Below, piece after piece: positions 1,792 to 64,000 of a DNA stretch of 64,000 nt; within the stretch, counting starts at the first letter, position 1, and the number at the start of each line of letters is the position of its first letter. The position numbers and the translations under genes are program-made. Origin of the DNA: an uncultured Chloroflexia bacterium (GTDB lineage: Bacteria; Chloroflexota; Anaerolineae; Anaerolineales; UBA4823); contig CAWGGJ010000003.1 in assembly GCA_963822175.1 (NCBI GenBank), positions 198,802-262,801 of the forward strand, in the 5' to 3' direction. The notes under the pieces were generated by a model. The model was given only the letters and a program-made list of their open reading frames with translations, did not search any database and was not told the DNA's origin.

Positions 1792-1841
1792 TTGACATCG
1801 AACGCATGTTCTGGTATTATCAATACATAGAACAACTGTAC
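1792..1841 (+). promoter_or_regulatory. lexA promoter with SOS (Cheo-type) boxes
   Basis: TTGACA (1792-1797), 17-nt spacer, TATTAT (1815-1820). The spacer contains the perfect palindrome GAACGCATGTTC (1800-1811). A second imperfect box, GAACAACTGTAC, lies at 1830-1841. Confidence 0.7.
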
Positions 1842-1863: not shown

Positions 1864-2592
1864 ATGATGACACCCAGACGTCGAAGTACTACATTAACTG
1901 ATCCACAAATCAAGGTTTTAAAAGTAATCGAAGATTACCAAAATTCGAATGGTTTTCCCCCATCGATCCGAGATATCCAGGATATGGGCAATTTCTCCTC
2001 GACCTCAGTGGTAAATTATTACCTTGAACAGCTTGAAACAATGGGGCATATCAAACGATCTGGGCATGTCTCACGGGGCATTCGGTTGATGCGTCCATTT
2101 TCGGAATTACCCCAAACAGCTTCTCGATCACTCCAAAACGTTCGTAAATCAGTACAGCAAGTCCTGCGTATCCCTGTTATGGGACGTATCTTTGCCAGTG
2201 AACCCGTACCTGTTCCACCTTCCGACTTTGCCTACCTGGATGCAGAATCGGTAGTTAATGTTGCCCGCAGTATGCTACCTGCCCGCGAGAAAGTTGAAGA
2301 ATTATTCGCCCTCGAAGTAAATGGGGATTCAATGATTGATGCAATGGTCAATGATGGTGATATTGTTATCATGAAACCTGCCAAAGATGTTCACAATGGA
2401 GACCTGGTTGCCATCTGGCTACGTGATAAAGATGAAACGACACTAAAGTATTTCTTCCTGGAGAACGGTAAAGTACGATTACAACCTGCTAACCCTACGA
2501 TGAAGCCTATATTTATTGATGATCCATCCACCGTTGATATCCAGGGAAAAATCGTCATGATTATACGCCCGTGTGAAATGTCGCTGCTGTAA
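1864..2592 (+). CDS. lexA: LexA repressor (S24 peptidase)
   Basis: N-terminal winged-helix region (GFPPSIRDI...YLEQLETMGHIKR). C-terminal S24 autoprotease motifs (VNGDSMIDAMVNDGDIVIMKP ... LKYF). GGAGGTGA ribosome-binding site immediately upstream. Confidence 0.9.
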   Translation: MMTPRRRSTTLTDPQIKVLKVIEDYQNSNGFPPSIRDIQDMGNFSSTSVVNYYLEQLETMGHIKRSGHVSRGIRLMRPFSELPQTASRSLQNVRKSVQQVLRIPVMGRIFASEPVPVPPSDFAYLDAESVVNVARSMLPAREKVEELFALEVNGDSMIDAMVNDGDIVIMKPAKDVHNGDLVAIWLRDKDETTLKYFFLENGKVRLQPANPTMKPIFIDDPSTVDIQGKIVMIIRPCEMSLL

Positions 2593-19032: not shown

Positions 19033-19440
19033 ATGAAAACCAAGAAATACGTTAATATCATCAATCAGGCAAGCCAGGAATCAAAGCCCATACTGGCAGA
19101 GTACTGCCAGTCTTTTTTTTGTCAATTGCGCGGTTTAATGTTCAGGAAGAGTTTACCGGATAATCATGGCTTGTTGTTGGTTCAAAAAACTGACAGCAAG
19201 ATGAATGCATCCATTCACATGATGTTTATGTGGATGGACCTGGCAGTAATTTGGATTAATAATGAAAATGTGGTCGTTGACCTGGTACTGGCACGCCGGT
19301 GGAAACTGGCTTATATACCCAGAGCTGCAGCCAGGTATGTGCTGGAAACCAGTGAATCTCACTTGGCAGATTATAAGATTGGCGACGAAGTGGAATTCGA
19401 ATTTTTAGCTCAGGATATGTATGCGAAAAATCATTTATAG
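19033..19440 (+). CDS. DUF192-family protein
   Basis: RGLMFRKSLPDNHGLLL...SIHMMFMWMDLAVIWIN...ARYVLE resembles the DUF192/COG1430 pattern. Confidence 0.55.
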   Translation: MKTKKYVNIINQASQESKPILAEYCQSFFCQLRGLMFRKSLPDNHGLLLVQKTDSKMNASIHMMFMWMDLAVIWINNENVVVDLVLARRWKLAYIPRAAARYVLETSESHLADYKIGDEVEFEFLAQDMYAKNHL

Positions 19441-32608: not shown

Positions 32609-33826
32609 ATGAGTAAATTAAAGAACATCTTCAGTCGGAAGAATAAGGAACATGCCCAGACCATGGTTGAGTTTGCCCTGGTTTTCCCATTTATATTATT
32701 AATTACTTATGGGATCATCGAGTTTGGGCGGATGGTCTTTATCTATACCGCGGTGACTGGTGCCGCTCGTGAAGGTGCCAGGTATGGAGCAGCTGCAGGA
32801 GATCTGGGTAATAACCTTACCCGTTATTACATGGACTGTACTGGAATATTGAACGCAGTGCAGCGGGGTGCCATCCTTACCCCGATCAATTCCAATGATG
32901 TGACGATCTGGTACGACCATGGTCCCGATACGAATCATATTAAAAATACCTGTCCCCCAGAAGATGCGAATGGCAAGGATTTGATAAACATCGGGGACCG
33001 CATCGGGGTACATGTTGTTGCCCACTTCTCACCGATCATCCCAATTCTCGGCGTGGATGGTTTTGACATTAACTCGGAAAATGCCCGCACCATCCTGGTC
33101 AATGTGGATGTGGTTGGCACACCCATGCCTCCCATGCCCACCAACACCCTCACCCGCACACCCGGACCTTCCCCTACCAGAACCCCTAACTATACTCCCA
33201 CAATATCTCCGACATCGACTCAATCCGGCACACCGACCCATACCCCAACTGTTACCCAGACCTGGGATCCGACCCAAACACCCACCATCACTCCCACACC
33301 GGCATGTATCATCAACAACGATGGCATGACCATTGGTTATGACTTCTTCGAATGGACATTAACCAGCCGAAGTACGGCGTTGGTTCGTTTGCAGGTTGCC
33401 GGCATCACCTGGCCTGGCTATCAATTGAATCCATTGGCTATCTCACCTGCACCTGGTGGCGGAAATATTTTAGCGAAAACTGACACACCGACTCCAACTT
33501 CCACAATTACCCCAACTGCCGCACCAACGTCGACTGCCTCAGTGACACCAACCATCACCCCTACCCCCGTTCCATCGGATAATCTTATTCAGGTCGATAT
33601 CGGTGTAAATGCTGTCTGGCAAGGGAACCAGCCACCCACCTCCTGGTCTACGGGCAGCTGGACTGGTGATCAATCCCGGAGAGAGCTTAGTCCAGGTGGC
33701 TCGCATACCCTCACATTCTCATTCTCGGACTATTTACCGACCGGAGATTATGCTGGTACATTGACCTACGTGAATGTGACGACCGGGCAAACTTGCAGCG
33801 TATCATTTTCGGAATATAAGCCATAA
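32609..33826 (+). CDS. TadE-like pseudopilin with two Pro/Thr-rich linkers and extra C-terminal domains
   Basis: TadE N-terminal signature AQTMVEFALVFPFILLITYGIIEFGRMVF. PT-rich tracts at roughly aa 172-232 and 292-322 (PTxTPT repeats). Confidence 0.75.
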   Translation: MSKLKNIFSRKNKEHAQTMVEFALVFPFILLITYGIIEFGRMVFIYTAVTGAAREGARYGAAAGDLGNNLTRYYMDCTGILNAVQRGAILTPINSNDVTIWYDHGPDTNHIKNTCPPEDANGKDLINIGDRIGVHVVAHFSPIIPILGVDGFDINSENARTILVNVDVVGTPMPPMPTNTLTRTPGPSPTRTPNYTPTISPTSTQSGTPTHTPTVTQTWDPTQTPTITPTPACIINNDGMTIGYDFFEWTLTSRSTALVRLQVAGITWPGYQLNPLAISPAPGGGNILAKTDTPTPTSTITPTAAPTSTASVTPTITPTPVPSDNLIQVDIGVNAVWQGNQPPTSWSTGSWTGDQSRRELSPGGSHTLTFSFSDYLPTGDYAGTLTYVNVTTGQTCSVSFSEYKP

Positions 33827-33837
33827 CGGAGCGTATT

Positions 33838-34272
33838 ATGGTTCATGATAAAAAATTAGAAGACAAAGAGCGCGGTCAAAGCATGGTCGAGCTGGCCCTG
33901 ACAATCACCATCCTAATGGTCCTCTTGGCTGGCACAATCGATATGGGTCGAGCTTTCTTCACCTGGCTGGCACTGCGTGATGCTGCTCAGGAAGGTGCTT
34001 CCTTCGGTTCCATCTATCCTTCCTACACAAATTTAATCAGATTACGGGTATGGGATAACCTGGAGCAGGTCGTTCCAGATCCAAAAACTGATGTTAATGT
34101 TACGGTCGGATATATCGACCATCCATGTCTTGGGAATACAATTTTGGTTAGCGTAGACTACCCAAATTTTCCTCTCACCATGCCCTTTCTGGGTACGATA
34201 CTTGGCTCACAAACCCTCAACATTCACGCCAGTGTGAATGACTCAATCCTGAAGCCAATTTCTTGTCCATAG
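33838..34272 (+). CDS. TadE/TadF-like pseudopilin
   Basis: RGQSMVELALTITILMVLLAGTIDMGRAFF, the TadE-family N-terminus. Confidence 0.75.
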   Translation: MVHDKKLEDKERGQSMVELALTITILMVLLAGTIDMGRAFFTWLALRDAAQEGASFGSIYPSYTNLIRLRVWDNLEQVVPDPKTDVNVTVGYIDHPCLGNTILVSVDYPNFPLTMPFLGTILGSQTLNIHASVNDSILKPISCP

Positions 34273-34296
34273 CAATGGTTTATTAAGGAGGCTATT

Positions 34297-35544
34297 ATGG
34301 TTATTAAGAATAACTCTGAAAAAGGTCAGGCGATTATTTATCTGGTCATCGGGTTTGTTGTCTTTCTCGGTTTTGTTGCTCTGGCAGTCGATGGTGGCAT
34401 GGCCCTCGCTGATCGTCGTCACTCACAGAATGCTGCTGATGCTGCTTCTTTAGCAGGCGGCGCGGAAGCTGCCCTGACCCTGGAGCAATGGGGAATAGAC
34501 TATAAAAACTGGAATTGTAATCCTAATTATCAGGCCCTGGCAAATGCCGAGAACACCGCGATCAGCCGGGCTGGAGCTAACAACTTTCCAATTGACGGCA
34601 ATCCTGACGATCACAATGGAGTGGTTGCTGATTGCGGTGTCACCTATTACCCCTGGTGGGGCGATAAAGGGGATGTCTATATCGATGTGACTGTGGATAT
34701 CTCAGCGACCACGCCCAGTAATTTCTTGCATATCCTTTACCCTGGAGTATTGCATAACGAGGTGGATGCCGTCACCCGTGTTCGACCTCGCCAGCCGATT
34801 GCCTTCGGAAATGCCATCGTGGCATTGAACCCGGAAAGTTGCTTGGGGCACCAGAACGGTGGGATTATGTACGGTAACGAGGATATCGAACTCCATGGTG
34901 GCGGTGTATTTTCCAATGGTTGCCTGCGGGGTAACGGAAATGGAGATGTTGATATCTATGATGGGCTGCCTTTGGGGAATGAACTGGACCCCGGTAATAT
35001 TGATTGGAATCCACCCCCAGAACCAGTTGATTTTCAAATTCCCGATGCAACCTATGCTGTGCCTCTCCCGAACTGCGCCGGTCATTGGGTTGATGAACTG
35101 GATGAGATGCCGACCTTGTTAAACGGGCTGTATTGCCTCAATGGAGACTTAAAGATCAATGCCAATGAGGTGTATTCAAGTACGATGGATGGGATCACGA
35201 TTTTCGTACCCAATGGGAGTGTAAGTATCAATGGTACCGCAAAACTGACCATCACTGCTCCCCCTTCTGACTCTCATCCTGACCCTGCCATTCCAGGGGT
35301 TCTGCTCTACCTGCCTCCTTCTAATCCAAGACCCGTGCAAATCAATGGAACATCGGATTCTGTATTCACGGGTTTGATCCTTGCTCCACGCTCTGAAATC
35401 GAGCTGAACGGCACGGGTGGCAATTCCTATGTCGGGCAGGTGGTCGGTTGGAATGTGCTCGTGGGAGGTACTGCTGACCTGTATCTCGTTTATAATCCGG
35501 ATGATGTATATAATACCCCCACCTCGATCGAGCTGGCAAAATAA
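34297..35544 (+). CDS. TadG-like protein (Flp-pilus-assembly TadG N-terminal domain)
   Basis: KGQAIIYLVIGFVVFLGFVALAVDGGMALADRRHSQNAADAASLAG matches the TadG-type N-terminus. Confidence 0.75.
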   Translation: MVIKNNSEKGQAIIYLVIGFVVFLGFVALAVDGGMALADRRHSQNAADAASLAGGAEAALTLEQWGIDYKNWNCNPNYQALANAENTAISRAGANNFPIDGNPDDHNGVVADCGVTYYPWWGDKGDVYIDVTVDISATTPSNFLHILYPGVLHNEVDAVTRVRPRQPIAFGNAIVALNPESCLGHQNGGIMYGNEDIELHGGGVFSNGCLRGNGNGDVDIYDGLPLGNELDPGNIDWNPPPEPVDFQIPDATYAVPLPNCAGHWVDELDEMPTLLNGLYCLNGDLKINANEVYSSTMDGITIFVPNGSVSINGTAKLTITAPPSDSHPDPAIPGVLLYLPPSNPRPVQINGTSDSVFTGLILAPRSEIELNGTGGNSYVGQVVGWNVLVGGTADLYLVYNPDDVYNTPTSIELAK

Positions 35545-35654: not shown

Positions 35655-36002
35655 ATGGCTGGGAAACACGGAATGCGACATTACAGCAAGGAAACCAAAC
35701 TACTCGCTGTGCAGATGTACCTCGAACTAGGAAAGAGTCAGGCACAAATAGCACAAGAGTTGGGTTTACCGCGGAAAGAGCTGGTTGAGCAATGGGTACA
35801 TCGTTATCGTCACGAAGGGGAAATCGGCTTCTGTAAGCCGATTGGCAGACCGCGAAAATCCCCACAGTCTCAGCAAGCCTATATTGCTCGACTAGAAATG
35901 GAAAATGCTCTGCTAAAAAAATACCACACCGAGTTGCGCAAAGCTATGCTCGCGAGGCGCGATATCGGGTTATTGAACACTACCGAGGAGTATACCCCGT
36001 GA
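35655..36002 (+). CDS. IS3 transposase OrfA (helix-turn-helix plus leucine zipper)
   Basis: [30 protein letters not shown]... and the coiled segment [15 protein letters not shown]. Confidence 0.85.
35915..35921 (+). promoter_or_regulatory. Programmed -1 ribosomal frameshift heptamer A_AAA_AAA
   Basis: Seven A read as CTA AAA AAA TAC in the orfA frame. The -1 (orfB) frame is open from 35837 onward. The fusion reads ...[49 protein letters not shown]. Confidence 0.6.
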
Positions 36003-36808
36003 ATGGGATGTGTAACTTCTTTGGGATCTCGCGAGCTGCCTACTATGCTTGGTGTCAGCGTATCAACCGGCCCGATCCAGACCGTGAACGCAAGCACTAT
36101 GTCTTAGAAGCATATCAGGCATCCCGAAAGAGGTATGGTTATCGACGTATCAGCTTGTGGTTGCGGAAGAAACGGTCAGTAATTATCAACCATAAGGCAG
36201 TGCTGCGGCTCATGAACCGCCTAGGCATTCATTCGGTTGCCCGTCAGCGCAAACCATTCCAGAAAATGAGCCGATTACCCATCTATCACCGCTACGAAAA
36301 TGTATTGCTTCGCAATTTCAACGCCAGCCGACCGAACCAAAAGTGGGTCACCGACATTACCTATGTGGCCACAGGACAGGGATTCGCATATCTGGCGGTG
36401 ATCAAGGACCTGTTTGACGGTTTCATTGTTGCCCACAAGCTCAGCCAGGACAATTCAGTTGCCCTGGTGACCCATACCCTCCAGCAGGCCTTTCAGAAAG
36501 AAATGGCCACTGATGGATTGATCCTCCACAGTGACCAAGGACATCAATACACCTCACACGCGTATCACGTCCTGACTCAACAGTATAACATCATCCCTTC
36601 CATGTCACGAAGGGGTAACTGTTGGGATAATGCGCCTATGGAGAACTTCTTTAGTCATCTCAAAGAAGAAGCGCTCCGTCATATTAATATCACCTCTTTT
36701 GAGGAGGCCAAGAATGTAGTTGACGAATATATTAACTTTTTCAATTATGAACGGTTACAATTGAAAACAAAACAGACACCCTACGAAGTAAGGTGTCTGT
36801 CCAGTTGA
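35999..36808 (+). CDS. IS3 transposase OrfB (DDE/rve integrase core), probably expressed as an OrfAB fusion
   Basis: [10 protein letters not shown] (first D), [10 protein letters not shown] (second D), [18 protein letters not shown] (E). Lies in the -1 frame relative to orfA. Confidence 0.85.
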
Positions 36809-38256: not shown

Positions 38257-38260
38257 TTCC

Positions 38261-38321
38261 TGGCGGAGAGAGAGGGATTTGAACCCTCGTTCCCTTGCGG
38301 GAAACACGCTTTCCAGCCGTG
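38261..38321 (-). repeat. Direct repeat: duplicated 3' half of tRNA-Ser (att-like)
   Basis: 38261-38310 is 50/50 identical to 39326-39375, the 3' 50 nt of tRNA-Ser(GGA). Similarity continues for another ~11 nt with 2 mismatches and is then lost. No 5' acceptor or D arm is present. Confidence 0.85.
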
Positions 38322-38438: not shown

Positions 38439-38954
38439 CTACAATCCACGATCTTTGTTCAACCACTCACGGTTATTCCAACTGACCGGACATCCACCAA
38501 CTCTATTGAAGGAAAGCTCAGGATTATTGGATTGCACAAGGACCATCAAGCGTCGTCCAAAGAGTAGATGATATCGTGCTTGAAAGGCAAGGATGTCTAG
38601 CACTATTTCTGCGTCATTAACTGTCATTGGAACAAATCGATCATATTGATAAAAGACAAGAACACGGCCGCTATTTTCTGGAATCTCAAGATCGTAAAGA
38701 CAATCGCTCAAAGCATCCAAATTTCGTCCAAAATAAGCAGGAAATGCAAGCTGTGTGGAGATAGCATCGTAAAAATCATCATCATTCAGCCAATCTTTGC
38801 AATCTATCGGGTCAATTTGGTAATCATGGTCACGAAGCCAGGATAAGTCATCCTCAAGAATTTCTCTGCGATTATAAAGAGTAATCGGACCATTCTGTAG
38901 CAACCGCCAATCAAGTTCATGCATACGAGCATCGATATATTGAAAGATTGCCAT
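38439..38954 (-). CDS. Barstar-like ribonuclease-inhibitor / immunity protein (orphan)
   Basis: AFPAYFGRNLDALSDCLYDLEIP...VLVFYQYDRF aligns with the barstar core [29 protein letters not shown]. Carries an extra ~60-aa N-terminal segment. Confidence 0.6.
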   Translation of the reverse strand: MAIFQYIDARMHELDWRLLQNGPITLYNRREILEDDLSWLRDHDYQIDPIDCKDWLNDDDFYDAISTQLAFPAYFGRNLDALSDCLYDLEIPENSGRVLVFYQYDRFVPMTVNDAEIVLDILAFQARYHLLFGRRLMVLVQSNNPELSFNRVGGCPVSWNNREWLNKDRGL

Positions 38955-39325
38955 ATATTTCCTCCTGAATCAAGACTATATTAGATAATGAAAAGACAAT
39001 AATCAAGAAATGATTAATTATATAAAGATTAATCGTTAAATACAGGGTGTATTAATAAAATTATATCGTTAAATAAATTTCGATGCTCAGATGTTGAAGA
39101 TTTGCTAGTAATTTCTTTGCTCTTGACGTCTGTATACTTCGAATGTTAAAATAATCTTGCTGATTGTTAAAGAATTACATGACGCACAATTACTCTAAAT
39201 TAGGTCACACGCTCTTTTAAATTTTTATCAAAGGTAATTCCACGGTTACCTTATATGTGTGGGGTGTTTCGGGGTGGGTATAATAGGTATATGAAGAAAG
39301 CCCACTCTGGTGAATGGGCATCTCC

Positions 39326-39415
39326 TGGCGGAGAGAGAGGGATTTGAACCCTCGTTCCCTTGCGGGAAACACGCTCTCCAGGCGTGCGCGCTAGGCCAGA
39401 CTACGCGATCTCTCC
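39326..39415 (-). tRNA. tRNA-Ser (anticodon GGA), type II with a long variable arm
   Basis: Reverse complement: GGAGAGA..GCACGC-CTGGAGA-GCGTG-TTTCCCGCAAGGGAAC-GAGGG-TTCAAAT-CCCTC-TCTCTCC-G-CCA. Length 90 nt. Confidence 0.9.
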
Positions 39416-50007: not shown

Positions 50008-51903
50008 ATGCATGTTATCGGCACTGCCGGGCACGTTGATCACGGAAAATCCACCCTCGTCCAGGCATTAACGGGTACCCATCCAGATCGCTTAAAAGAA
50101 GAGCGTGAGAGGGAGATGACGATTGACTTGGGTTTTGCCTGGTTGACTCTCCCTTCTGGAGAGGAGGTCGGTATTGTTGACGTTCCTGGGCATCGTGATT
50201 TCATCGAAAATATGCTTGCCGGTATCGGAGGGATAGATGCTGTATTATTTGTCATCGCAGCCGATGAAGGCATCATGCCTCAAACAAAAGAACATCTGGC
50301 CATTTTGGATATTCTGCAAGTGCAGGGTGGCGTCATTGCTCTTACAAAAATTGATCTCATCGATGATCCTGATTGGCTCGAGTTGATTGAAGAAGATATT
50401 CGCAGTGCATTAATCGGTACGATCCTGGAAAACAGACCCATCATTCGCCTCTCTTCGCGCACAGGTCAGGGTATCCCTGAATTGTTAAAATCCTTAAGCG
50501 ATTGCCTGGCTGATCGTCCGCCAAGGCTTGATCTAGGTCGCCCGCGACTTCCCATTGATCGTGTATTTACCATGTCGGGGTTTGGTACTGTAGTCACCGG
50601 TACCCTATCTGACGGGAGCTTTCACACAGGGGACGACGTGGAAATTCTACCATCCAGGTTGCGTACCCGTATTCGTGGTTTGCAAACGCATCGCCGAAAA
50701 GAAGACATAGCCATCCCAGGCAGCCGAACGGCTGTCAATATTTCTGGTGTAAATGTAGATCAGGTGAAACGGGGTGATGTAATTGCTTATCCTGGCAGTT
50801 ATCAATCCAGTCAGCGCATCGATGTTCGTTTTCGTCTTCTTGGTGATGTCGTTCACCCATTGAAGCATAGCACCCCGGTAAAATTATTCCTTGGTGCAGC
50901 GGAGATCTTATCAAGAGTGCGTTTATTGGGAAGTGATGAACTCCTCCCTGGTGAAGAAGGTTGGTTGCAGCTTGAGCTTGATCAACCTATCGTGGCCATA
51001 CGGGGAGATCGCTACATTCTACGTAGACCCTCACCTGGAGAGACTCTTGGTGGTGGAATTGTAGTTGATCCACAACCCAAGCGTCGACACAAACGTTTTT
51101 CAGCCGAGGTGCTCAATAATTTAGAAACACTTGAGCGTGGTACACCTGCAGAGATCCTATTACAGGCACTAATGACCCTGAGAGTGGCAACAATACAAGA
51201 CGTGATTGTTCGATCAAATCTTGACGTAAAATCAGGCGAAGATATTGCGAAAGAATTGGTTTCAACCGGACAAATTATTGTTTTGGAGAACGGCGATCAA
51301 GCGTCAATCTCACCACTTGCATTGGTAACATCGAATGCATATTGGGAACAGCTCCAACACCAGGTTTTACTAGAGGTGGATGGATACCATAAAAACTTCC
51401 CATTGCGGCGGGGGATGTCACGCGAAGAGTTAAAATCGCGCCTAAAATTTTCCTCCCGTCTCAACAATGCTGTCCTGAGAAGAATGGTTTCTTCTGGAGA
51501 ATTGGTAGAAGCTGGTTCACTGGTCCATCGTGCCGGGTACACAATCCAATTTACCTCACAGCAACAAAGGATGATCAACGGTTTACTGGCCCGCTTTGCC
51601 TCCTCCCCATTCTCTCCTCCAACAATAAAAGAATGTTCAACAGATGTGGGAGAGAATATTTACTCTGCTATGGTGGAGCTTGGATTATTGATTCCCATTC
51701 CCCCTGATGTGGTCTTCCGCAAGGAGGACTATGACATGATGCTGTCTGAAATAATTCGCCTGTTGAAATCCAGGGGAACGATCACAGCCGGGGAGGTACG
51801 TGACCATTTCAATACCAGCCGGCGGTATGTGCTTGCATTATTGGAGCACCTCGATGCGAAAGGAATTACTGTTCGTGAAGGTGACCTGCGCCGTTTAAAA
51901 TAA
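50008..51903 (+). CDS. selB: Selenocysteine-specific translation elongation factor SelB
   Basis: N-terminus IGTAGHVDHGKSTLVQALTGTHPDRLKEEREREMTIDLGF and DVPGHRDFIENMLAG match E. coli SelB almost position by position. Four C-terminal winged-helix repeats end in ITAGEVRDHFNTSRRYVLALLEHLDAKGITVREGDLRRL, the SECIS-binding module. Confidence 0.9.
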   Translation: MHVIGTAGHVDHGKSTLVQALTGTHPDRLKEEREREMTIDLGFAWLTLPSGEEVGIVDVPGHRDFIENMLAGIGGIDAVLFVIAADEGIMPQTKEHLAILDILQVQGGVIALTKIDLIDDPDWLELIEEDIRSALIGTILENRPIIRLSSRTGQGIPELLKSLSDCLADRPPRLDLGRPRLPIDRVFTMSGFGTVVTGTLSDGSFHTGDDVEILPSRLRTRIRGLQTHRRKEDIAIPGSRTAVNISGVNVDQVKRGDVIAYPGSYQSSQRIDVRFRLLGDVVHPLKHSTPVKLFLGAAEILSRVRLLGSDELLPGEEGWLQLELDQPIVAIRGDRYILRRPSPGETLGGGIVVDPQPKRRHKRFSAEVLNNLETLERGTPAEILLQALMTLRVATIQDVIVRSNLDVKSGEDIAKELVSTGQIIVLENGDQASISPLALVTSNAYWEQLQHQVLLEVDGYHKNFPLRRGMSREELKSRLKFSSRLNNAVLRRMVSSGELVEAGSLVHRAGYTIQFTSQQQRMINGLLARFASSPFSPPTIKECSTDVGENIYSAMVELGLLIPIPPDVVFRKEDYDMMLSEIIRLLKSRGTITAGEVRDHFNTSRRYVLALLEHLDAKGITVREGDLRRLK

Positions 51904-55415: not shown

Positions 55416-56549
55416 TTATTTAATTCGCTGCATTAAAGCCTGCACCAAATCTACAAGTATTTGTAAACCTTGTCCAACTGGTTTTATATCGATAAATTCA
55501 CTGGTGGTATGTGAGCCTCCGCCGGTAGTCAATCCTATGCATACCGCTGGGAACCCTCTGCTGAGCGGTTCATTGGCATCTGTGGAACCAATATTTAACC
55601 TGGGGCTGATGCCATTTGTTATATGGCATTCTTTTGCCAGGGCGACCAGTTGGTGATCTGCCTGGATTTCACCCGCTGGTCGATCCCCGATGATTTTTGC
55701 TTTCACCTGGATGGTATCCGCACCTTTCAGGTTGGCTTGGTCCACCAACAATTCCACCTGCCTGGTTAATGCACCCAACTTAAGGGGACTCACAGAACGT
55801 AAATCCAGCTGCATGCTGGCTTTACCAGCAATGGTATTCACGGATGTTCCACCTGAAATAACGCCTACATTCAACGTGGTTCTTGGTTCAATGGGCAAGG
55901 CAAGATTCTTGATTTTTACCACTAGTTCTGCAATTTCATGGATGGCTGATGGATTGCCATAATCTATCCAGGAATGCCCTCCTTTGGTGTCCACGCTGAT
56001 CTCATACCTGCGTACACCCAGTCCCCTATGGTATATCTGACCGAGTGACATGCCCTCAAGAATGATATATGCCAGGACATCCCCCTTAAACCGGTTAACC
56101 ACGGATTTCATCCCCTTCAAGTCACCTAACCCCTCTTCACCAACATTTGCCACCAGCCAAACGTCACCCGGCAATAGTCTATCTTCACGCTGTCCTGAAC
56201 GGGTTCCACGCAACGCCCAATATAGTCCAAATAAACCTGCCAGACCCAGCGAATTATCTCCAATCCCAGGCCCGGTGATCTTCTCAATGGTACTCATCCC
56301 AGATAAATCTGTACCCTCAGGGAAGACCGTGTCCAAATGAGCGGTTACCACAACAGGTGGTATTTCTCCTCGACCTTTCAGACATGCATATACATTGCCA
56401 CTTTCATCTTTAAAGCTATCTTGCAATCCTAAATTATAAAATTTTTCCCCAACAAACTCAGCCCGTCGGGATTCATAAAATGTCGGAGAAGGTATTTGCT
56501 GTAACTCTACCGCCAGGTTTATGACCCGTTCAACAATGGATTGATCCAT
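55416..56549 (-). CDS. M20-family metallopeptidase / deacylase
   Basis: VVTAHLDTV, GPGIGDNSLG, NVGEEGLG metal-ligand motifs. Confidence 0.8.
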   Translation of the reverse strand: MDQSIVERVINLAVELQQIPSPTFYESRRAEFVGEKFYNLGLQDSFKDESGNVYACLKGRGEIPPVVVTAHLDTVFPEGTDLSGMSTIEKITGPGIGDNSLGLAGLFGLYWALRGTRSGQREDRLLPGDVWLVANVGEEGLGDLKGMKSVVNRFKGDVLAYIILEGMSLGQIYHRGLGVRRYEISVDTKGGHSWIDYGNPSAIHEIAELVVKIKNLALPIEPRTTLNVGVISGGTSVNTIAGKASMQLDLRSVSPLKLGALTRQVELLVDQANLKGADTIQVKAKIIGDRPAGEIQADHQLVALAKECHITNGISPRLNIGSTDANEPLSRGFPAVCIGLTTGGGSHTTSEFIDIKPVGQGLQILVDLVQALMQRIK

Positions 56550-56557
56550 AATCAGGA

Positions 56558-57595
56558 TTAAACCTTTCGAACGCCTTCTTTCAAGGCTTCCAATCTTGCT
56601 TGTGCTAATCCAGGCAGCGCTTCCATAGCATACATAGCCCCGCTACCTTCAATCGTAAGAGATGCGGAAATACTTCCGTATAATACAGCCTGGAGTGGAT
56701 CATAGGTTCTTCGATATCCCGCAAGAAAACCTCCACAAAATGAATCTCCTGCTCCAGTCGGATCTACTACCCTTGCCGGGTAGGCTGAGATTTCCCACCG
56801 GGAATTTGTCGCACGATCGTAGAGCAGCTGACCACGCTCACCTCTTTTTACCACCACGATTTCGCACCCACAATCACTTATTGCTTCTATCATTTCCCAT
56901 AAATCGGTCTTTCTGCCATGGAATAACATTCGCACCTCTTCTTCGTTGGGAAGAAAAGCAGTCAAACCACTGACTAAGGCTGGTATATCGTCCCAAAATG
57001 TTGGTGTCATTGTACCAGCCGACGGGTCGAGGGTCACAATTGTAAAGCCACCTTGGCGTAATACAGCTGGCAATAAAGAGTGAGTTAGAAAATCAATGGG
57101 ACAAAGATGTGCTGCAGATGCATCCAGGTAATCTGGTGAAATGTCGGATTGGCGTAAAGACGTGGCAGTCAGCTGTGTACGACTGTCATATGAATTCCTT
57201 CGTTGTGCGTAATTTAGCAACGCCTTGGGAAACTGTTGCTCCAACCGCGTAAAATGTGCAGCCGGGTCCTCGGTCAGACGGGTGTACATATCCGTATACA
57301 CATAAAAAGAGCGCAAGTCAATGGCTTCAGGTAATACTCGAATACCCTGGGTATCGAAACCCCGCTTGGCAAGCTCAGCCAGCCAATCTCGAGGATAATC
57401 CTCACCAACCCTGGCTACCAAACCAAGGTGTTCCACAGGCTCCCACACACCAAAGCCTGCCGCGGCATAGATCAGGTTTCCACCTGGTACATCCACAAAA
57501 GCCCTTCCACCTGGGATGAGTGCAAAATCGCGTCGTAGTTGTCCTGCAATGACGTATCTCACTGAAGTCTCTGGCATGGTTTTTCCGATAATCAA
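56558..57595 (-). CDS. PfkB-family carbohydrate kinase
   Basis: C-terminal DPTGAGDSFCGGFLAG motif and overall ribokinase-fold length. Confidence 0.8.
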   Translation of the reverse strand: MIIGKTMPETSVRYVIAGQLRRDFALIPGGRAFVDVPGGNLIYAAAGFGVWEPVEHLGLVARVGEDYPRDWLAELAKRGFDTQGIRVLPEAIDLRSFYVYTDMYTRLTEDPAAHFTRLEQQFPKALLNYAQRRNSYDSRTQLTATSLRQSDISPDYLDASAAHLCPIDFLTHSLLPAVLRQGGFTIVTLDPSAGTMTPTFWDDIPALVSGLTAFLPNEEEVRMLFHGRKTDLWEMIEAISDCGCEIVVVKRGERGQLLYDRATNSRWEISAYPARVVDPTGAGDSFCGGFLAGYRRTYDPLQAVLYGSISASLTIEGSGAMYAMEALPGLAQARLEALKEGVRKV

Positions 57596-57649
57596 TCCCC
57601 AATAATTTTCATGAATAATAGAGAAAGAATCTTACTATCATTAAGAGGT

Positions 57650-59173
57650 TTATTTGGTCGCATTTATCTGGCTCGCTGCATCAGAACAGGTACAGGCATA
57701 AATTGTGTTCCCCGCCTTGGTGAGAGTACCTTGATATTCTACCTGCCCATTATGGACTACCCATCCTTCCATATTAAATGGAATGACACTATCAGCTAGC
57801 ATCCACTCCCCACTGTATTTTCGGGCAATGTGTACATGGGTACCCGTTGTCCGACCCCCTTCACAGGATGGATGTCCGATGAGATCACCTGTCTTCATTA
57901 CCTTTCCAACAGGTGCCCTACCTTTTGCCTCAATGTGAAAGTAAAAAACCACCCAACCTGTGCGTTCATCTCCGTCACCATCAAGATCCAGCAACACAGC
58001 CGCATTATCCGATCGTACCACTACACCCGGTGCAACAGCAGTAGCCCACGCATCAGTAGGGACACATCCGCTGGTCTCTGCCCCTGGGGCAAAATCAATC
58101 GCTGCCAGTGGCTCTCCCTCTCCATATCCTGTATGCGGACCCCCAGTGTATGCCCAGGTCAGACCAGGTAAAAATGGTAATGAGAACTCTGGCTGGGAAA
58201 GGCTCCCGGGAAGATGCGGGGTGTCTACACCCCACGGATCCCCAAACAAACTGGCATAAGTTTGAGCCAATCCGTCAGGTGCCACCGACCGTGCATATTG
58301 GTCACCATCGATTAATCTAGAGAAATAGTACTGCAAAGCCACTGAGGCTGCATTCTGCCATGGATCAGGTCGTTCTTGAGTCCCATCCTTATGATCAAAT
58401 GCGATCAAGCTGCCATTTCTCCAACTATAGTATCCATTGTTAAGCAAATTAGCTGCCCAAACCAATTGCCGATACACACCTTTATGTTGCCAATCCTGGT
58501 ACCCAAGCGGATATTGGCCTAATTCATCTGGATATACAGGTTTAGTTAAGGCTCCAGCTTGATATTCCAACAAGGATAAAAGTAAGCGTGGGCTGACGCT
58601 GTAATTCAGTGCTACTAAGTCAATGATCTCCGCTCCCGTCCTGTTGTCATCAAAGGCATACTCAATATATCCATTTAACCATCCAGGCTGACCGGAGACA
58701 AATGCAGAAGTATCAAAGCCAATTTGAGCTGGACCATTTATGAATAAACTATCTGGGATGATTTGAAACTGCGACCCCCAGAAAGGTTGGTAATAGATTG
58801 GGATTTTCATTGGCATACCAGGGGGCATGGTCGTGGCATCAGCAGGGATAAAACTGTTGGCATTGAGAATTTCATCTACCGAGGTATTAAAATGGCTGGC
58901 AATACCGGGAAGAGTATCTCCGGTTTGTGCAACGTAGTCCACCAGCTCACCCGGTGTGTATGAAGGACGGGCTGGTAAAGGTGTTGTTGTAACGTTTGGT
59001 TGGCTGAGAATTAAATTCTGGGTCGGGGTCTGTGCGGGGGCAACCGTATTAACCACAGCTAAATTCTGATTTTCTATACCACTGCATCCGCTTATCAAAA
59101 TTGACAATACCATCACAAGGAGGACGTATTTGTTCGATTTACTCATTCTAGAGATATATTTCTGGGATACCAT
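57650..59173 (-). CDS. LysM-M23 peptidoglycan hydrolase-like lipoprotein, paralog 1
   Basis: Lipobox LISGC. LysM (YVAQTGDTLPGIASHFNTSVDEILNAN). A conserved central module (SPRLLLSLLEYQAG...GVYRQLVWAANLLNNGYY). M23-like C-terminus (GGPH...AIDFAP...FHIE...GHPSCEGG..TGTHVHIARK). Confidence 0.8.
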   Translation of the reverse strand: MVSQKYISRMSKSNKYVLLVMVLSILISGCSGIENQNLAVVNTVAPAQTPTQNLILSQPNVTTTPLPARPSYTPGELVDYVAQTGDTLPGIASHFNTSVDEILNANSFIPADATTMPPGMPMKIPIYYQPFWGSQFQIIPDSLFINGPAQIGFDTSAFVSGQPGWLNGYIEYAFDDNRTGAEIIDLVALNYSVSPRLLLSLLEYQAGALTKPVYPDELGQYPLGYQDWQHKGVYRQLVWAANLLNNGYYSWRNGSLIAFDHKDGTQERPDPWQNAASVALQYYFSRLIDGDQYARSVAPDGLAQTYASLFGDPWGVDTPHLPGSLSQPEFSLPFLPGLTWAYTGGPHTGYGEGEPLAAIDFAPGAETSGCVPTDAWATAVAPGVVVRSDNAAVLLDLDGDGDERTGWVVFYFHIEAKGRAPVGKVMKTGDLIGHPSCEGGRTTGTHVHIARKYSGEWMLADSVIPFNMEGWVVHNGQVEYQGTLTKAGNTIYACTCSDAASQINATK

Positions 59174-59200
59174 TCTCTCAATGCAAAAGGCGATAAATCA

Positions 59201-60838
59201 CTATGGTGTCCCTCGAGTCCGCACTATTCGTGATTCATATGATCCAACAACACTGGAGGAAACTATTTCTTCTCCTTTAGTCATTGTTCCGTCATAGGGA
59301 ACGCTTCCAGCATGGACCGTCCATCCACTCAAAACAAAAGGCAAAGGTCCATCCGCAGAAATCCACTCACCATTATATTTTCGAGCGATGTGGACATGGG
59401 TTCCCGTAGCAATCCCTCCTTCACAGGATGGGTGGCCTAAATAATCGCCGGTTTCAACCCAGTCGCCTACAGCTACCTGCATCTTATCAACATGAAGGTA
59501 GAGGATATTCCATCCAGTTTGCTCATTGCCATCACCATCCAGGTCCTGGACAACTGTGGCATTATCCGCACGAACAATCAATCCAGGCGCAGCTGCAGCG
59601 ATCCACGCAAAGGATTCAACACAACCCGACTCGGTGCTTCCCGGTGCGAAATCGACAGCCGCGCGCGAACCTTCTCTTTCCCAGGCACCATGGGGTCCAC
59701 CAGTATAACTCCATACTTGCCCGATCAGGAACGGGAGGATGAGATCTGGCTGAGTTAAATTCGGTGGGTAAAGAGGCTCAACTTCCATGGCTCGGAACCA
59801 GGGATTACCATACATTTTTTCATAAAGGGCTGGAAAACCACTATTCGTGTCCAGAGCTGCCAACCAGCCCGGGGTATTATTAAGTTGGGCTAAATAATAT
59901 TGGAGCGCAACGGTCCCACTGTTTAGATCTGGTGCGAGTCGGGCAGAAATCCCGTCTGAAAATTGGATGTCTGTCATCCATCCCTCACGCCAGCCATAAT
60001 ACCCGGTGGATAATTGATTGACAGCCCATGCAAGTTGACGATATAAGCCTTTCATTGGTAAATCCACCTTGCCCATTGGATAATCCTCTTGCAAGGGATT
60101 GGCGGGTTGCCCGTATACCCACCCACTCTGCAATTCCAACAAAGCCAGTAATACTCGAGGGTTGATCGAGTTTTCCAGCGCTATTCGACTGATTATTCCC
60201 GCCCCTGAAGTCCATTCGCCGGTACCCAGCCATGCTCTATAAGTACTTAAGTATCCTCCTGCTTGGTTGACGAAGTCTTCTACATCGAAGTCAACAGCTG
60301 ATGGCGAATATACTAGCTCACTATCAGGGAGGATCTTTGCAGAGTTGGTGGTATTGACTAACACATGTGGGATGATCAATAATGTATCGGGAGTTAATAA
60401 TCCTGTTGAAGGAATGGAGGCAGATGGAGCGATGATCTCATCGGGTTCAACCCCGAAACGTGTTGCAACCACAGGCAGTGTATCCCCAGCCTGGGTGTAA
60501 TAAAGCAGCGGAGCAGTATCCACAGGGACTGATTCAGGTGTAGGTATTTCAGTCGATAACAGGAGGATTCCTTGGGGGGGCAGATCTGTGATCTCAGTTT
60601 GCTCGGGCTGGTCTGTCGGAAAATCCAAGGATGGGGTAGGCGTCCTGAGCTCGATGCCATTCGGTGCATTAAATAATGGGTCATTCTGATCCAGCACCCC
60701 AATTGCACAGGAGAGGCTGATGAATGCTACAGTCAATCCACTAATTAATATTCGAAAGAGGTTGAATGACCGGTTATGATCACCTGTGGATTGTATTTTC
60801 GGGGTAGAAAGCTTCCCAAGCTTCAATCGATTCTCCAT
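59201..60838 (-). CDS. LysM-M23 peptidoglycan hydrolase-like lipoprotein, paralog 2
   Basis: Same architecture as paralog 1 (YYTQAGDTLPVVATRFGV; NPRVLLALLELQSGW; GLYRQLAWAVNQLSTGYY; GHPSCEGGIATGTHVHIARKYNGEW). The start is uncertain. The ATG at 60838 overlaps the end of paralog 3 by 59 nt. Confidence 0.8.
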   Translation of the reverse strand: MENRLKLGKLSTPKIQSTGDHNRSFNLFRILISGLTVAFISLSCAIGVLDQNDPLFNAPNGIELRTPTPSLDFPTDQPEQTEITDLPPQGILLLSTEIPTPESVPVDTAPLLYYTQAGDTLPVVATRFGVEPDEIIAPSASIPSTGLLTPDTLLIIPHVLVNTTNSAKILPDSELVYSPSAVDFDVEDFVNQAGGYLSTYRAWLGTGEWTSGAGIISRIALENSINPRVLLALLELQSGWVYGQPANPLQEDYPMGKVDLPMKGLYRQLAWAVNQLSTGYYGWREGWMTDIQFSDGISARLAPDLNSGTVALQYYLAQLNNTPGWLAALDTNSGFPALYEKMYGNPWFRAMEVEPLYPPNLTQPDLILPFLIGQVWSYTGGPHGAWEREGSRAAVDFAPGSTESGCVESFAWIAAAAPGLIVRADNATVVQDLDGDGNEQTGWNILYLHVDKMQVAVGDWVETGDYLGHPSCEGGIATGTHVHIARKYNGEWISADGPLPFVLSGWTVHAGSVPYDGTMTKGEEIVSSSVVGSYESRIVRTRGTP

Positions 60839-62336
60839 CACGCTCTAAATAGCCATCGTACTCTATACCTGTTCCGCTAGAAATCCAGCCATCTAAATTG
60901 AACGGTGGACTGCTGGTTGTTCCTGGTTGATCAGCTGGAATCCACTCACCATTATACCGCCGTGCAAGATGAAAATGGGTGCCCGTGGAAATACCCCCCT
61001 CACAAGATGGATGCCCTATAGGTTCTCCAGCCTTCAAATACACACCGGGTTCAACCCGATCACGCTCCTCGATGTGCAAATACAGAACGCTCCATCCTGT
61101 CCCCTCGTTCCCATCACCATCCAGGTCTTGGATCACCCTTCCCTGGTCTGCACGTATGATCAGGCCATCTGCAACTGCCACTACCCACAAGTCACTTTGG
61201 ACACATCCACGACCTTCATTCCCAGGTGCAAAATCAATGCCTGCCCAAGCTGATCCATCCCCCCAACCCGCATGAGGGCCTCCAGTGAAAGCCCAATCAA
61301 CATCTGGTTCAAATGGCAATTGCATTTCTGGTTGTTCAAGAATTGAAGGTATCACTGGCTCAAAAGTATAATCAAATGGATGTCCAAACAAGTTGCTAAA
61401 TGTGCTGAATAACCCATCTGCTGAGACTGCATTATCCCAGGCCTGGCGACCATATAATTGGGAAAATAACAGGTGCACTCCAGCTGTCCCAGCATTAATA
61501 GATTGATCGATGGGTATGATAATCCCATTGTTCAATAGCCATCCACCGATGCCATTCACACGCCATAAATAGTATCCACGATTAAGGTTATTGGCAGCCC
61601 AGGCGAGCTGCAGGTATAAGCCTTTGCGCCAGCTATCTGTATTTCCGATCGGGAAATCCCGACTGTTCTCATCTGGATTTGCTTGCGTAACCCAACCACT
61701 TTGATATTCAAGGACCGCCAGTAATAACCTTGGGTTGATGGAATAATCCATTGCCACTTTCTTCACGATTTCAGGACCTGTGAGCATTCTTCCTTCCACT
61801 TCTTCCTGGTATCGGTTTAAATAGCTATCATAACGACCGACAAATTCCATCAAGTCAAAGCTTTGCGCCATAGGTCCGTAAACCAGCTCAGAATCCGGTA
61901 TGATCTTAAATCCAGTGCTTGGCTCACCTGGGGTAGGCGCTGGGATGATCAATACTTGACCGACTTCGAGTAAATTTGGATTGGTTATTTGGTTGGCTGA
62001 CAACAACATCTGTACGGTGATTTTATATCGATTGGCAATAATACCCAGGTTATCTCCCCTTTGGACAATATATTGTTCCTCCTGAGTGCGAATCCCTGGC
62101 AATTCACGTGGAGCGTCAGGAGTTGGAGTCAAAATAGTTATATCACCGGGATTCCTAATTTGTGGCAGGAATGTCACACTTGTCGAGGCAAGCCCGGGAG
62201 GTGGAGTCAGGCTTGCGGTAGCCAATTGGTAATTAAGGGCTGGAATCTCGATGGGTTGGATTGTTTGCTGGCACGCCAAAGTAATGCCTAATACCAATAA
62301 GACAAAGGTAAACAATATTAATCTTCTACCAGTCAT
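60780..62336 (-). CDS. LysM-M23 peptidoglycan hydrolase-like lipoprotein, paralog 3
   Basis: Same architecture as paralogs 1 and 2. Start moved to the second Met (MTGRRLILFTFVLLVLGITLAC, lipobox) at 62334-62336, 6 nt after AAGGA. The track's first ATG lies inside the -10 hexamer of the promoter. Confidence 0.8.
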   Translation of the reverse strand: MTGRRLILFTFVLLVLGITLACQQTIQPIEIPALNYQLATASLTPPPGLASTSVTFLPQIRNPGDITILTPTPDAPRELPGIRTQEEQYIVQRGDNLGIIANRYKITVQMLLSANQITNPNLLEVGQVLIIPAPTPGEPSTGFKIIPDSELVYGPMAQSFDLMEFVGRYDSYLNRYQEEVEGRMLTGPEIVKKVAMDYSINPRLLLAVLEYQSGWVTQANPDENSRDFPIGNTDSWRKGLYLQLAWAANNLNRGYYLWRVNGIGGWLLNNGIIIPIDQSINAGTAGVHLLFSQLYGRQAWDNAVSADGLFSTFSNLFGHPFDYTFEPVIPSILEQPEMQLPFEPDVDWAFTGGPHAGWGDGSAWAGIDFAPGNEGRGCVQSDLWVVAVADGLIIRADQGRVIQDLDGDGNEGTGWSVLYLHIEERDRVEPGVYLKAGEPIGHPSCEGGISTGTHFHLARRYNGEWIPADQPGTTSSPPFNLDGWISSGTGIEYDGYLERDGESIEAWEAFYPENTIHR

Positions 62337-62352
62337 GATTAATTCCTTGTGC

Positions 62353-62381
62353 ATTCTACCGTGAACAACTGTTCAAGTCAA
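62353..62381 (-). promoter_or_regulatory. Sigma-70-type promoter with an embedded LexA (SOS) box driving the LysM-M23 genes
   Basis: The minus strand reads TTGACT (62376-62381), then tGAACAGTTGTTCacgg (17-nt spacer; box at 62363-62374), then TAGAAT (62353-62358). This is the same architecture as the lexA promoter at 1792-1820. Confidence 0.65.
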
Positions 62382-62480
62382 TTATCGTCGGTTTATCAAT
62401 TAAGTCGAATAATATGACTTAAAACCCTTCAGTAAACTGCGAGGGTATAATTGAGTTACTCCAACTGGTCGAGGTGAGAT

Positions 62481-64000
62481 ATGACAGAAGCCATCGTTGA
62501 ATGTATCCCAAATTATTCTGAAGCGCGCCGTCCCGACATTGTTGAGGCAATTATGAACGCAATTACATCTGTTGATGGTGTTTCCTTGCTGGACCGTCAT
62601 TCAGATCTCGACCATAATCGCACCGTTCTCACATTCGTCGGTCCACCCGATGCCGTGGAGGAGGCAGCTTTTCGATCAATTGCCAAAGCCGGTGAGTTGA
62701 TCGACCTTGACCAGCATACAGGTGAACATCCCAGGATCGGGGCAACCGATGTGGTCCCTTTTGTGCCCATTTCCGGGATTACGATGCAAGATTGCATCCA
62801 AATTGCCCGTCGTCTTGGGAAGCGGGTGGGGGAAGAGCTGAACATCCCGGTTTACCTCTATGAAGAGGCAGCCACTCGCCCTGAGCGGACAAACCTGGAA
62901 AACCTGCGCCGTGGGCAATACGAAACCCTAAAAAAAGAGATGGGGGTGAACCCGGATCGTGATCCTGACTTTGGTCCAAATAAAGTTGGAACTGCAGGGG
63001 CAACAGTGATTGGAGCGCGCCAACCCCTGATTGCCTATAATGTCTACCTGACCACTGACGATGTAACTATTGCAGAGAAAATTGCAAAAACCATCAGGTT
63101 TTCTTCCGGTGGATTGCGATTTGTAAAAGCCTTGGGGATGCTGGTGGAGGGCCAGGCTCAGATATCAATGAACCTGACGAATTACCATAAGACCTCCCTA
63201 CCCCTAGTAGTCGAAACGATCCGGCGCGAAGCATCTCGTTATGGCGTCAATATCCATCACGCTGAGCTAGTCGGACTGATCCCCCAGTCGGCATTGGTGG
63301 ATGCAGCAGTGTGGTACTTGCAGCTCGATCAATTCAAAGCTGAACAAATCCTGGAACAAAAACTATACACCACCCAACAACTAAATCAAACAGCATCCTC
63401 TGAACCATTCCAATATGGCACCGAATTTCTCGATGCTATAGCATCCGGAAATGCAACCCCGGGAGGAGGGTCTGCGGCAGCATATTCCGGTGCAGCAGCA
63501 GCAAGCCTGGTCGCCATGGTAGCCCGGTTGACGATCGGTAAGAAAAAATACGCGGATGTTGAAGCAGAGATGCAAACGATCCTTTCCCAGGTTGAGACAT
63601 TAAGAAACGAGCTCACTCTCGCTATCCAACTGGATGCATCAGCATTTGATAATGTCATGGTAGCTTATAAAATGACCAAGGATACTCCCGAACAACAGGA
63701 AGTTCGTCAAAAAGCCATCGAACAGGCAACAATATTAGCTACCCAGGCTCCGATGGGTGTTGCTCATAAATCTTTACGTGTACTTTGCCTGGCAGAGAAA
63801 GTTATCCGCCGAGGAAATATTTCTGCATTAAGTGATGGTGCCACTGGAGCAGCACTTGCCAAGGCAGCTTTGATTGGGGCAGCCTATAACATCCGCATTA
63901 ATGCAAAAGACTTACCACCCTCCCTCGCAGATCCATTTTTAGCCGAACTCGAGGTACTCGAAAAACATTCAGCTGAAATAGAATTCCGCATACAAAAAAC
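62481..64000 (+). CDS. ftcD: Bifunctional glutamate formimidoyltransferase / formimidoyl-THF cyclodeaminase; 3' end beyond the window
   Basis: Absent from the ORF track because it is open at the edge. ATG 62481 follows GAGGTGAG. Translation MTEAIVECIPNYSEARR...LDRHSDLDHNRTVLTFVG...GEHPRIGATDVVPFVP matches the FTCD N-terminal domain. From about aa 300, FLDAIASGNATPGGGSAAAYSGAAAASLVAMVARLTIGKKKY matches cyclodeaminase. Confidence 0.85.
   Translation, partial: MTEAIVECIPNYSEARRPDIVEAIMNAITSVDGVSLLDRHSDLDHNRTVLTFVGPPDAVEEAAFRSIAKAGELIDLDQHTGEHPRIGATDVVPFVPISGITMQDCIQIARRLGKRVGEELNIPVYLYEEAATRPERTNLENLRRGQYETLKKEMGVNPDRDPDFGPNKVGTAGATVIGARQPLIAYNVYLTTDDVTIAEKIAKTIRFSSGGLRFVKALGMLVEGQAQISMNLTNYHKTSLPLVVETIRREASRYGVNIHHAELVGLIPQSALVDAAVWYLQLDQFKAEQILEQKLYTTQQLNQTASSEPFQYGTEFLDAIASGNATPGGGSAAAYSGAAAASLVAMVARLTIGKKKYADVEAEMQTILSQVETLRNELTLAIQLDASAFDNVMVAYKMTKDTPEQQEVRQKAIEQATILATQAPMGVAHKSLRVLCLAEKVIRRGNISALSDGATGAALAKAALIGAAYNIRINAKDLPPSLADPFLAELEVLEKHSAEIEFRIQK

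Follow-up and report, generated by a model that had tools for sequence, protein, structure and literature searches.

YneA of Bacillus subtilis and ChiZ of Mycobacterium tuberculosis are small proteins. Both combine one transmembrane segment with a LysM domain and act on FtsW through the transmembrane segment (PMC13396833). Colicins are bacteriolytic proteins controlled by SOS boxes; colicin Z, for example, carries just one such box and has a suspected peptidoglycan target (PMC6668396). We compared these systems with a locus of an uncultured member of the Anaerolineales (Chloroflexota), in which a perfect LexA-type palindrome lies in the predicted promoter of three tandem genes for M23 peptidase lipoproteins (the M23 operon). 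The locus is part of a 64-kb stretch of DNA, analysed at its full length and referred to here as the window.

The palindrome (the M23 box) has the same 12-bp core as the Gram-positive-type SOS box of autoregulated lexA, and it is placed between -35 and -10 as in the lexA promoter of its own genome and in 73 related lexA promoters. In contrast to the Gram-positive box, it fronts a cell-wall hydrolase operon and not a repair gene. It also differs in being single, in its atypical flanks and in being conserved only in a species-level group and one other lineage.

The likeness to YneA and ChiZ lies in the LexA-type box upstream and in the LysM domain of M23 genes 1 and 3. The parallel had been drawn in an earlier reading of this DNA (the sequence-only reading), but it fails on architecture. 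The M23 proteins are large lipoproteins of about 507-546 aa (518, 545 and 507 aa for genes 1 to 3), not small proteins with one transmembrane segment and a LysM domain. They have intact LasA-like M23 domains and are encoded in a core operon found across the order, which lies 60 kb from lexA and whose gene 2 has no detectable LysM. The M23 enzymes are housekeeping hydrolases, not division inhibitors of the YneA/ChiZ type. With the colicins the operon shares a LexA box in the promoter of a peptidoglycan-acting protein. Colicins are plasmid-borne toxins with immunity genes, whereas the M23 operon is chromosomal, syntenic and order-wide and has no immunity gene.

The promoter of the M23 operon and its palindrome

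The minus strand at 62381..62353 reads TTGACT-tGAACAGTTGTTCacgg-TAGAAT; the same spacer can be segmented as TTGACT-TGAACAGTTGTTCACGG-TAGAAT. This bears out the report of a perfect GAAC-N4-GTTC palindrome within a 17-nt promoter spacer. The features of the intergenic region are:

62353..62381, minus strand: predicted strong sigma-70-type promoter of the M23 operon, with -35 TTGACT (62381..62376), a 17-nt spacer and -10 TAGAAT (62358..62353)
62363..62374: perfect LexA-type palindrome within the promoter spacer, GAACAACTGTTC on the plus strand and GAACAGTTGTTC on the gene strand
62481..64000, plus strand: divergent FTCD gene (formiminotransferase-cyclodeaminase; Pfam FTCD_N, FTCD and FTCD_C), running off the window

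In a promoter consensus scan of 57000-64000, the predicted M23 promoter matched 10 of 12 positions with a 17-nt spacer, a joint top score tied with three plus-strand matches, all in coding sequence. It contains the sole conserved -35/-10 pair upstream of gene 1, and the box at 62363-62374 lies within its spacer with 0 mismatches to the 12-bp GAAC-N4-GTTC motif. No second site accompanies this single box.

The promoter also bears on the start codon of gene 1. The first ATG (62354) overlaps the -10, whilst the second (62336) is preceded by AAGGA and gives a protein of 518 aa, as in most orthologues. In one relative (L001), translation from the upstream ATG, the one within the -10, meets a stop codon. 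The corrected start put forward in the sequence-only reading is thus upheld. From the -10 to the corrected ATG is 16 nt, and a distance of 15-17 nt is kept in all genus-level orthologues. The mRNA leader of the M23 operon would then be ~10 nt, starting at, near or in the ribosome-binding site.

We considered whether the box might regulate FTCD, the divergent gene, and rejected this, since at least 60 nt separate the box from the conserved FTCD -10 (TATAAT at about 62440). A conserved block, AATTATACCC, was also seen there in the orthologue alignments. We likewise rejected a Rex, CRP/FNR or WalR site. The consensus sequences of these regulators are general knowledge, and either their half-site spacing or their sequence does not match.

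Perfect GAAC-N4-GTTC sites are rare in this DNA. The window holds 4 against 0.6 expected, and none of 100 shuffles reached 4. Its non-coding DNA amounts to 7.6 kb, in which 0.10 perfect boxes are expected. Besides the M23 box and the box of the lexA promoter, the perfect sites are in the T-arm region of a tRNA-Ser gene (39346) and in a 64-nt duplicate of the 3' part of that tRNA (38281). The sequence-only reading had given the two promoter sites as the only ones it found in non-coding, non-tRNA DNA. The remaining window sites with at most one mismatch are all within ORFs. In 875 kb of related Anaerolineales DNA we counted 16 perfect boxes, all in coding sequence and 0 in promoters. The M23 box match exceeds chance expectation.

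The tRNA-linked matches belong to a 64-nt direct repeat, 97% identical, at 38258-38321 and 39323-39386. The tRNA-Ser(GGA) gene (39326-39415, minus strand) has its 3' part duplicated 1065 nt away, which explains two of the four perfect matches in the window. The repeats enclose a gene for a 171-aa barstar-domain protein (38439-38954; Pfam Barstar 8e-19), with an IS3-type transposase ORF nearby (35999-36808). The arrangement resembles an att-site scar left at tRNA-Ser by the integration of a small element. Perfect GAAC-N4-GTTC was also found within the M23 genes of seven loci (L017, L028, L029, L033, L038, L072 and L073), in the codons of the catalytic G-T-H-V-H motif (GGAACNCATGTTCA). These codons and the tRNA-Ser T-arm are a systematic source of false positives for LexA-box scans of these genomes.

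Genes and proteins of the operon

The operon and the genes downstream of it are:

60780..62336, minus strand: gene 1, LysM and LasA-like M23 lipoprotein, 518 aa, corrected start ATG at 62336
59201..60838, minus strand: gene 2, M23 paralogue, 545 aa, with a 59-nt overlap with gene 1
57650..59173, minus strand: gene 3, LysM-M23 lipoprotein paralogue, 507 aa, 27 nt after gene 2
57595..56558, minus strand: PfkB-family sugar kinase (NCBIfam), after a 54-nt gap from gene 3
56549..55416, minus strand: M20 (ArgE/DapE-like) peptidase (NCBIfam), after an 8-nt gap from the PfkB gene

In gene 1, Pfam detected LysM (1e-14) and M23 (9.5e-07), and residues 338-511 match pseudoalterin (PDB 6ik4, 1.7e-09) and LasA (3it5, 1e-04). 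Residues H355, D368, H442, H454 and H456 are invariant in 27 gene-1 orthologues, as is the lipobox Cys22, in agreement with the proposed lipoprotein assignment. The M23 catalytic residues are thus present, and all three genes match PF01551. Against the Pfam cut-off of 28.7 bits, gene 1 (29.4) and gene 2 (31.2) score above and gene 3 (21.3) below. Of the string of LysM-M23 lipoproteins described in the sequence-only reading, the lipoprotein signal peptide and the M23 domain were found in all three genes, but LysM was detected in genes 1 and 3 and not in gene 2.

The closest known enzymes are the M23A peptidoglycan endopeptidases LasA, pseudoalterin and beta-lytic protease, the first two of which are matched by the C-terminal domain of gene 1 with its invariant His/Asp/His-x-His residues. 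LasA and the other M23A enzymes are secreted and bacteriolytic, whereas the window proteins are lipid-anchored, carry LysM and a middle region and are encoded as three tandem paralogues. The middle region is helical and ~200 aa long. A structure prediction for gene 1 from the 27-sequence alignment had a mean pLDDT of 48.6, and the M23 domain was not formed in the model.

The 59-nt overlap of genes 1 and 2 (60780-60838) is called likewise in seven relatives (L161-L164, L167, L168 and L170). Within gene 1 lie the codons for the first 28 residues of gene 2, ahead of its hydrophobic segment and lipobox. This suggests either translational coupling or a later true start of gene 2.

A scan found no terminator-like sites between the M23, PfkB and M20 genes. 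The PfkB kinase and M20 peptidase genes probably form the distal part of the M23 operon, co-transcription being judged from the gaps and the conserved order. The order FTCD, three M23 genes, pfkB and M20 is conserved in all nine genus-level genomes and in L008, with L001-L009 among them, and the M23 triple persists even in Thermanaerothrix and Bellilinea. By this comparison the three-M23 operon, kept throughout the order, is a core cell-wall operon of the housekeeping kind. The gene-1 orthologue has an in-frame stop in L001 (about 7080) and a frameshift in L007 (about 6160). As the gene is so conserved, faulty MAG assembly is the probable cause of these lesions, more so than pseudogene formation.

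The window contains a fourth LysM-M23 gene (19421-20827), encoding 468 aa with two LysM domains and a canonical M23 domain (2.7e-30). It is downstream of a small ORF and a response-receiver-like ORF at ~18553-18958, as read from the sequence, and no LexA-like site was found upstream of it.

The LexA operator of the clade

The window also encodes a LexA, and the promoter of its gene carries the same motif:

1867..2592, plus strand: lexA, 241 aa from the second ATG; Pfam LexA_DNA_bind and Peptidase_S24
1792..1841, plus strand: lexA promoter, with -35 TTGACA (1792-1797), box 1 GAACGCATGTTC (1800-1811), -10 TATTAT (1815-1820) and box 2 GAACAACTGTAC (1830-1841)

The lexA product scored 148 bits with TIGR00498 (cut-off 111), and its homologues are 241 aa long. 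At 1792-1820 the promoter reads TTGACA-TC-GAACGCATGTTC-TGG-TATTAT, so that the layout is shared with the M23 promoter, as had been claimed: in both, the operator-type box is in the spacer. The M23 box shares its core with lexA box 1, from which it is offset in spacer position by just 1 nt. With the imperfect lexA box 2, which the sequence-only reading does not mention, it has 10 of 12 bases in common, the first ten; the two do not differ in the left arm or the N4 (GAACAACTGT).

A scan of metagenomes for LexA yielded 80 loci with 57-94% aa identity (L081-L160). These gave 73 distinct Anaerolineae lexA promoters of the form TTGAC-N2-4-GAACGNATGTTC-N3-(-10), with a perfect box in the spacer and all 8 core bases invariant. 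In 64 of the 73, a second, degenerate box follows downstream of the -10, with the left half G(C/A)AC and an invariant inner C. The inner C of the left half-site is thus present in 73/73 sequences at box 1 and in 64/64 at box 2. Box 2 is kept across the class, as AGAACAACTGTACT in the window's clade and AGCACAAATGAAC-like elsewhere, its left half fixed and its right half variable. The paired boxes suggest a two-site, possibly cooperative, operator at lexA.

LexA itself is ~90% identical across the window's clade. Since 73 lexA promoters carry the invariant core in the spacer, the promoter comparison identifies GAAC-N4-GTTC as the LexA operator motif of the clade, and its placement in the spacer as the clade's own way of repressing lexA. 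Dehalococcoides ethenogenes, of the Chloroflexi, reportedly uses a GAAC-N4-GTTC box too, in work ascribed to Fernandez de Henestrosa et al. in 2002. The clade motif agrees with the Gram-positive SOS (Cheo) box, whose original description in Bacillus subtilis was widened to Gram-positives (PMC3323433).

The self-cleavage site of LexA is Ala-Ser (motif GRIFASEP) where Ala-Gly is canonical, a difference relevant to whatever is claimed about SOS in the group. In Anaerolineae LexA proteins the cleavage-site Ala is followed by S, G or A, and the catalytic Ser (GDSM) and Lys are conserved.

Motif searches of the window and all 170 loci found no RecA, UvrA, UvrB, RuvB, RecN or other regulon members, and there were no further promoter boxes in the lexA loci. 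Within the window, a Schlafen/AlbA_2-domain protein, TadE/TadG-like pilus assembly proteins and a SelB selenocysteine elongation factor are encoded at 27627-29381, 32609-35544 and 50008-51903, a Lon protease at 24615-27251 and an FtsH protease at 11681-13552. No LexA-like sites were found at any of these genes.

Conservation of the M23 box and possible control by LexA

We compared the M23 promoter across a genus-level group (67-90% aa identity) comprising 16 promoter sequences with 13 distinct spacers. Four members of the window's species group (L167-L170) stand outside these 16, and L171 has no promoter in the comparison, its contig ending inside the gene. The boxes, by mismatches to GAAC-N4-GTTC, are:

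Perfect, the window and L168: GAACAGTTGTTC
Perfect, L161, L167, L169 and L170: GAACACTTGTTC
Perfect, L163: GAACTGTCGTTC
1 mismatch, L164 and L004: GAATTGTCGTTC
1 mismatch, L166: GAATTGCTGTTC
1 mismatch, L006 and L009: GAAAAGCTGTTC
2 mismatches, L165, L001 and L005: GAAATGTCCTTC
2 mismatches, L003, L002 and L007: GAATTGTTCTTC, GGATAGTTGTTC and GATTTATCGTTC, respectively
3 mismatches, L162, sister of the window's species group (80% aa identity): GCCTTGTTGTTC

The perfect box was present in 3 of the 16 genus-level promoters (the window, L161 and L163) and also in L167-L170. Only two lineages have it: one is L163, the other the species group of the window (L161 and L167-L170, with aa identities of 90% or more). 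The other genus-level promoters have 1 mismatch (five sequences), 2 mismatches (seven) or 3 (L162 only). In none of 80 orthologous loci (one genome per species) did the 400 nt preceding the gene contain a perfect box. Among these orthologues, the ~70 beyond genus level, including cultured Thermanaerothrix and a Bellilinea MAG, were equally without one over that distance. Three of the more distant sequences (L013, L029 and L033) retain only GTTCA(CGG)TAGAAT, without the left half, and L008 retains neither half. The remaining orthologues have in common only an extended -10, (T)GGTAGAAT. The palindrome thus leaves no phylogenetic footprint of a LexA operator, being perfect only in the species group and L163. 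By the standard set in the sequence-only reading, absence of the box from the orthologous promoters of close relatives, its proposal of an SOS-controlled cell-wall or division response is largely refuted, and it is unsupported as a conserved trait.

These promoters do retain some order around the box. A block TTGAC(T/G)-N17-TAGAATG is kept in 16/16 genus-level orthologues, whilst the flanking DNA is saturated. GAA is found in 13/16 and TTC in 16/16 genus-level promoters at the correct spacing, with the central 6 nt varying, and five lineages carry GAA(T/A)-N4-GTTC. Such a pattern could reflect LexA control of the M23 operon since the genus-level ancestor through graded GAAN-N4-NTTC operators, of which the window's would be a strong version. 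The bona fide recA operator of B. subtilis is GAAT-N4-GTTC, which counts for this possibility. Parsimony on the tree favours GAAT-N4-GTTC as the ancestral state of the genus-level spacer, which it probably was. Against ancient control, 7/16 sequences have 2 mismatches and L162 has 3, nothing comparable exists in the other ~70 orthologues, the inner C never varies in the clade's own operators, and the spacer positions not involved in LexA recognition are more conserved than the LexA-critical ones. We therefore consider an old, conserved SOS-M23 circuit quite unlikely.

Per-position counts located the constraint more precisely. The invariant parts of the genus-level promoters are TTGAC(T/G)TG and TTCACGGTAGAATG, and the constant outer parts of the spacer, TTGACTTG and TTCACGGTAGAATG, appear promoter-related. 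The AA of the left half-site is moderately conserved (13/15), the inner C position is A5/C3/T7 and the inner G position G11/C4. The variable positions of the M23 spacers are those that never vary in the clade's lexA operators. As the inner C is invariant at the lexA boxes and A5/C3/T7 here, the counts point to an absence of visible selection for LexA binding beyond the species group.

This pattern would also be expected if the match were a neutral coincidence, with the edges of the spacer constrained for RNA polymerase and the promoter, the two inner positions drifting, in this lineage, into GAAC...GTTC and no meaningful regulation by LexA in vivo. Such an account fits the invariance of TTGAC(T/G)TG and TTCACGGTAGAATG alongside moderate conservation of the LexA-critical AA and variation of the inner C and G. 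It also fits the persistence of GTTCA(CGG)TAGAAT in L013, L029 and L033: since the right half survives in lineages without the left half, its conservation is independent of the palindrome. With the right half (GTTCACGG) fixed otherwise, a perfect box would need essentially one position to be C, which drift would supply in about 1/4 of lineages. The observed frequency, 3/16 sequences with two origins, is as expected from drift. In the neighbour-joining tree the perfect boxes are split between two positions with imperfect ones around them, a pattern that fits recurrent drift. The flanking bases are non-preferred as well. On the other side, a perfect core would a priori seldom fall in a promoter spacer, and the box is retained in every member of the species group that could be read. 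Perfect cores of the Gram-positive type are also said to be usually bound in vitro in B. subtilis, a report ascribed to Au et al. in 2005 that counts against coincidence. We regard neutral coincidence as a serious though somewhat unlikely account.

Retention within the species group deserves separate mention. The box is perfect in three distinguishable lineages whose N4 is polymorphic (AGTT or ACTT). Over the same comparison, a stretch of ~45 nt directly preceding the promoter is scrambled, and identity at third codon positions is only 74-77%. As the whole promoter is retained in the species group, this offers weak evidence for selection on the box itself.

The flanks raise a further alternative. 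T before GAAC and A after GTTC are invariant at the M23 promoter but rare at lexA box 1 (1/73 and 3/73). A different dimeric regulator, such as an envelope-stress or cell-cycle factor, might read TGAA-N6-TTCA, the likeness to a LexA box being incidental. The conserved T-GAA...TTC-A, the flanks that LexA does not prefer and the freedom of inner positions that LexA requires would all suit such a factor. Arguing against it, the non-coding DNA of the window holds no second copy of TGAA-N6-TTCA or GTTCACGGTAGAAT, no candidate regulator gene adjoins the operon, and the left half is absent in three genus-level lineages. We hold a different regulator to be very improbable.

The site at 62363-62374 is a genuine match to the lineage's LexA operator. 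Weighing these accounts, we consider the chances about even that it represents young, lineage-restricted LexA wiring, and not part of a conserved SOS-to-cell-wall checkpoint. That LexA binds the M23 promoter in the window's species group seems rather likely. In this species-level lineage, a LexA dimer would bind the M23 spacer and compete with RNA polymerase, as at the lexA promoter. Bound LexA would partially repress the M23 operon, and DNA damage, by triggering LexA cleavage, would de-repress it. The perfect box may have arisen by substitution at one or more freely drifting inner positions of a pre-adapted spacer, and the operator is possibly accidental as well as recent. Against LexA control, a repressor on a housekeeping hydrolase promoter is not obviously useful, the flanks are non-preferred, and the LexA cleavage site is Ala-Ser instead of the canonical Ala-Gly.

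At present, the M23 box is a candidate site for a regulon survey rather than a new checkpoint mechanism. It is a distant prospect that DNA damage in the species group de-represses three membrane-anchored LasA-type endopeptidases, so that SOS acts on the wall via hydrolases and not via a small inhibitor of the YneA/ChiZ/SulA type. If true, filament fragmentation, excision of damaged cells or controlled autolysis would be possible SOS outcomes in a filamentous monoderm, and the promoter would be a recently evolved capture by LexA. To our knowledge, the SOS regulon of filamentous Chloroflexota is essentially unstudied. Should LexA control the operon, one or two point changes in a promoter spacer would have brought a core cell-wall hydrolase operon into the SOS regulon, a useful example of regulon growth, and the site would be the first hint of an SOS effect on the envelope of filamentous Chloroflexota.
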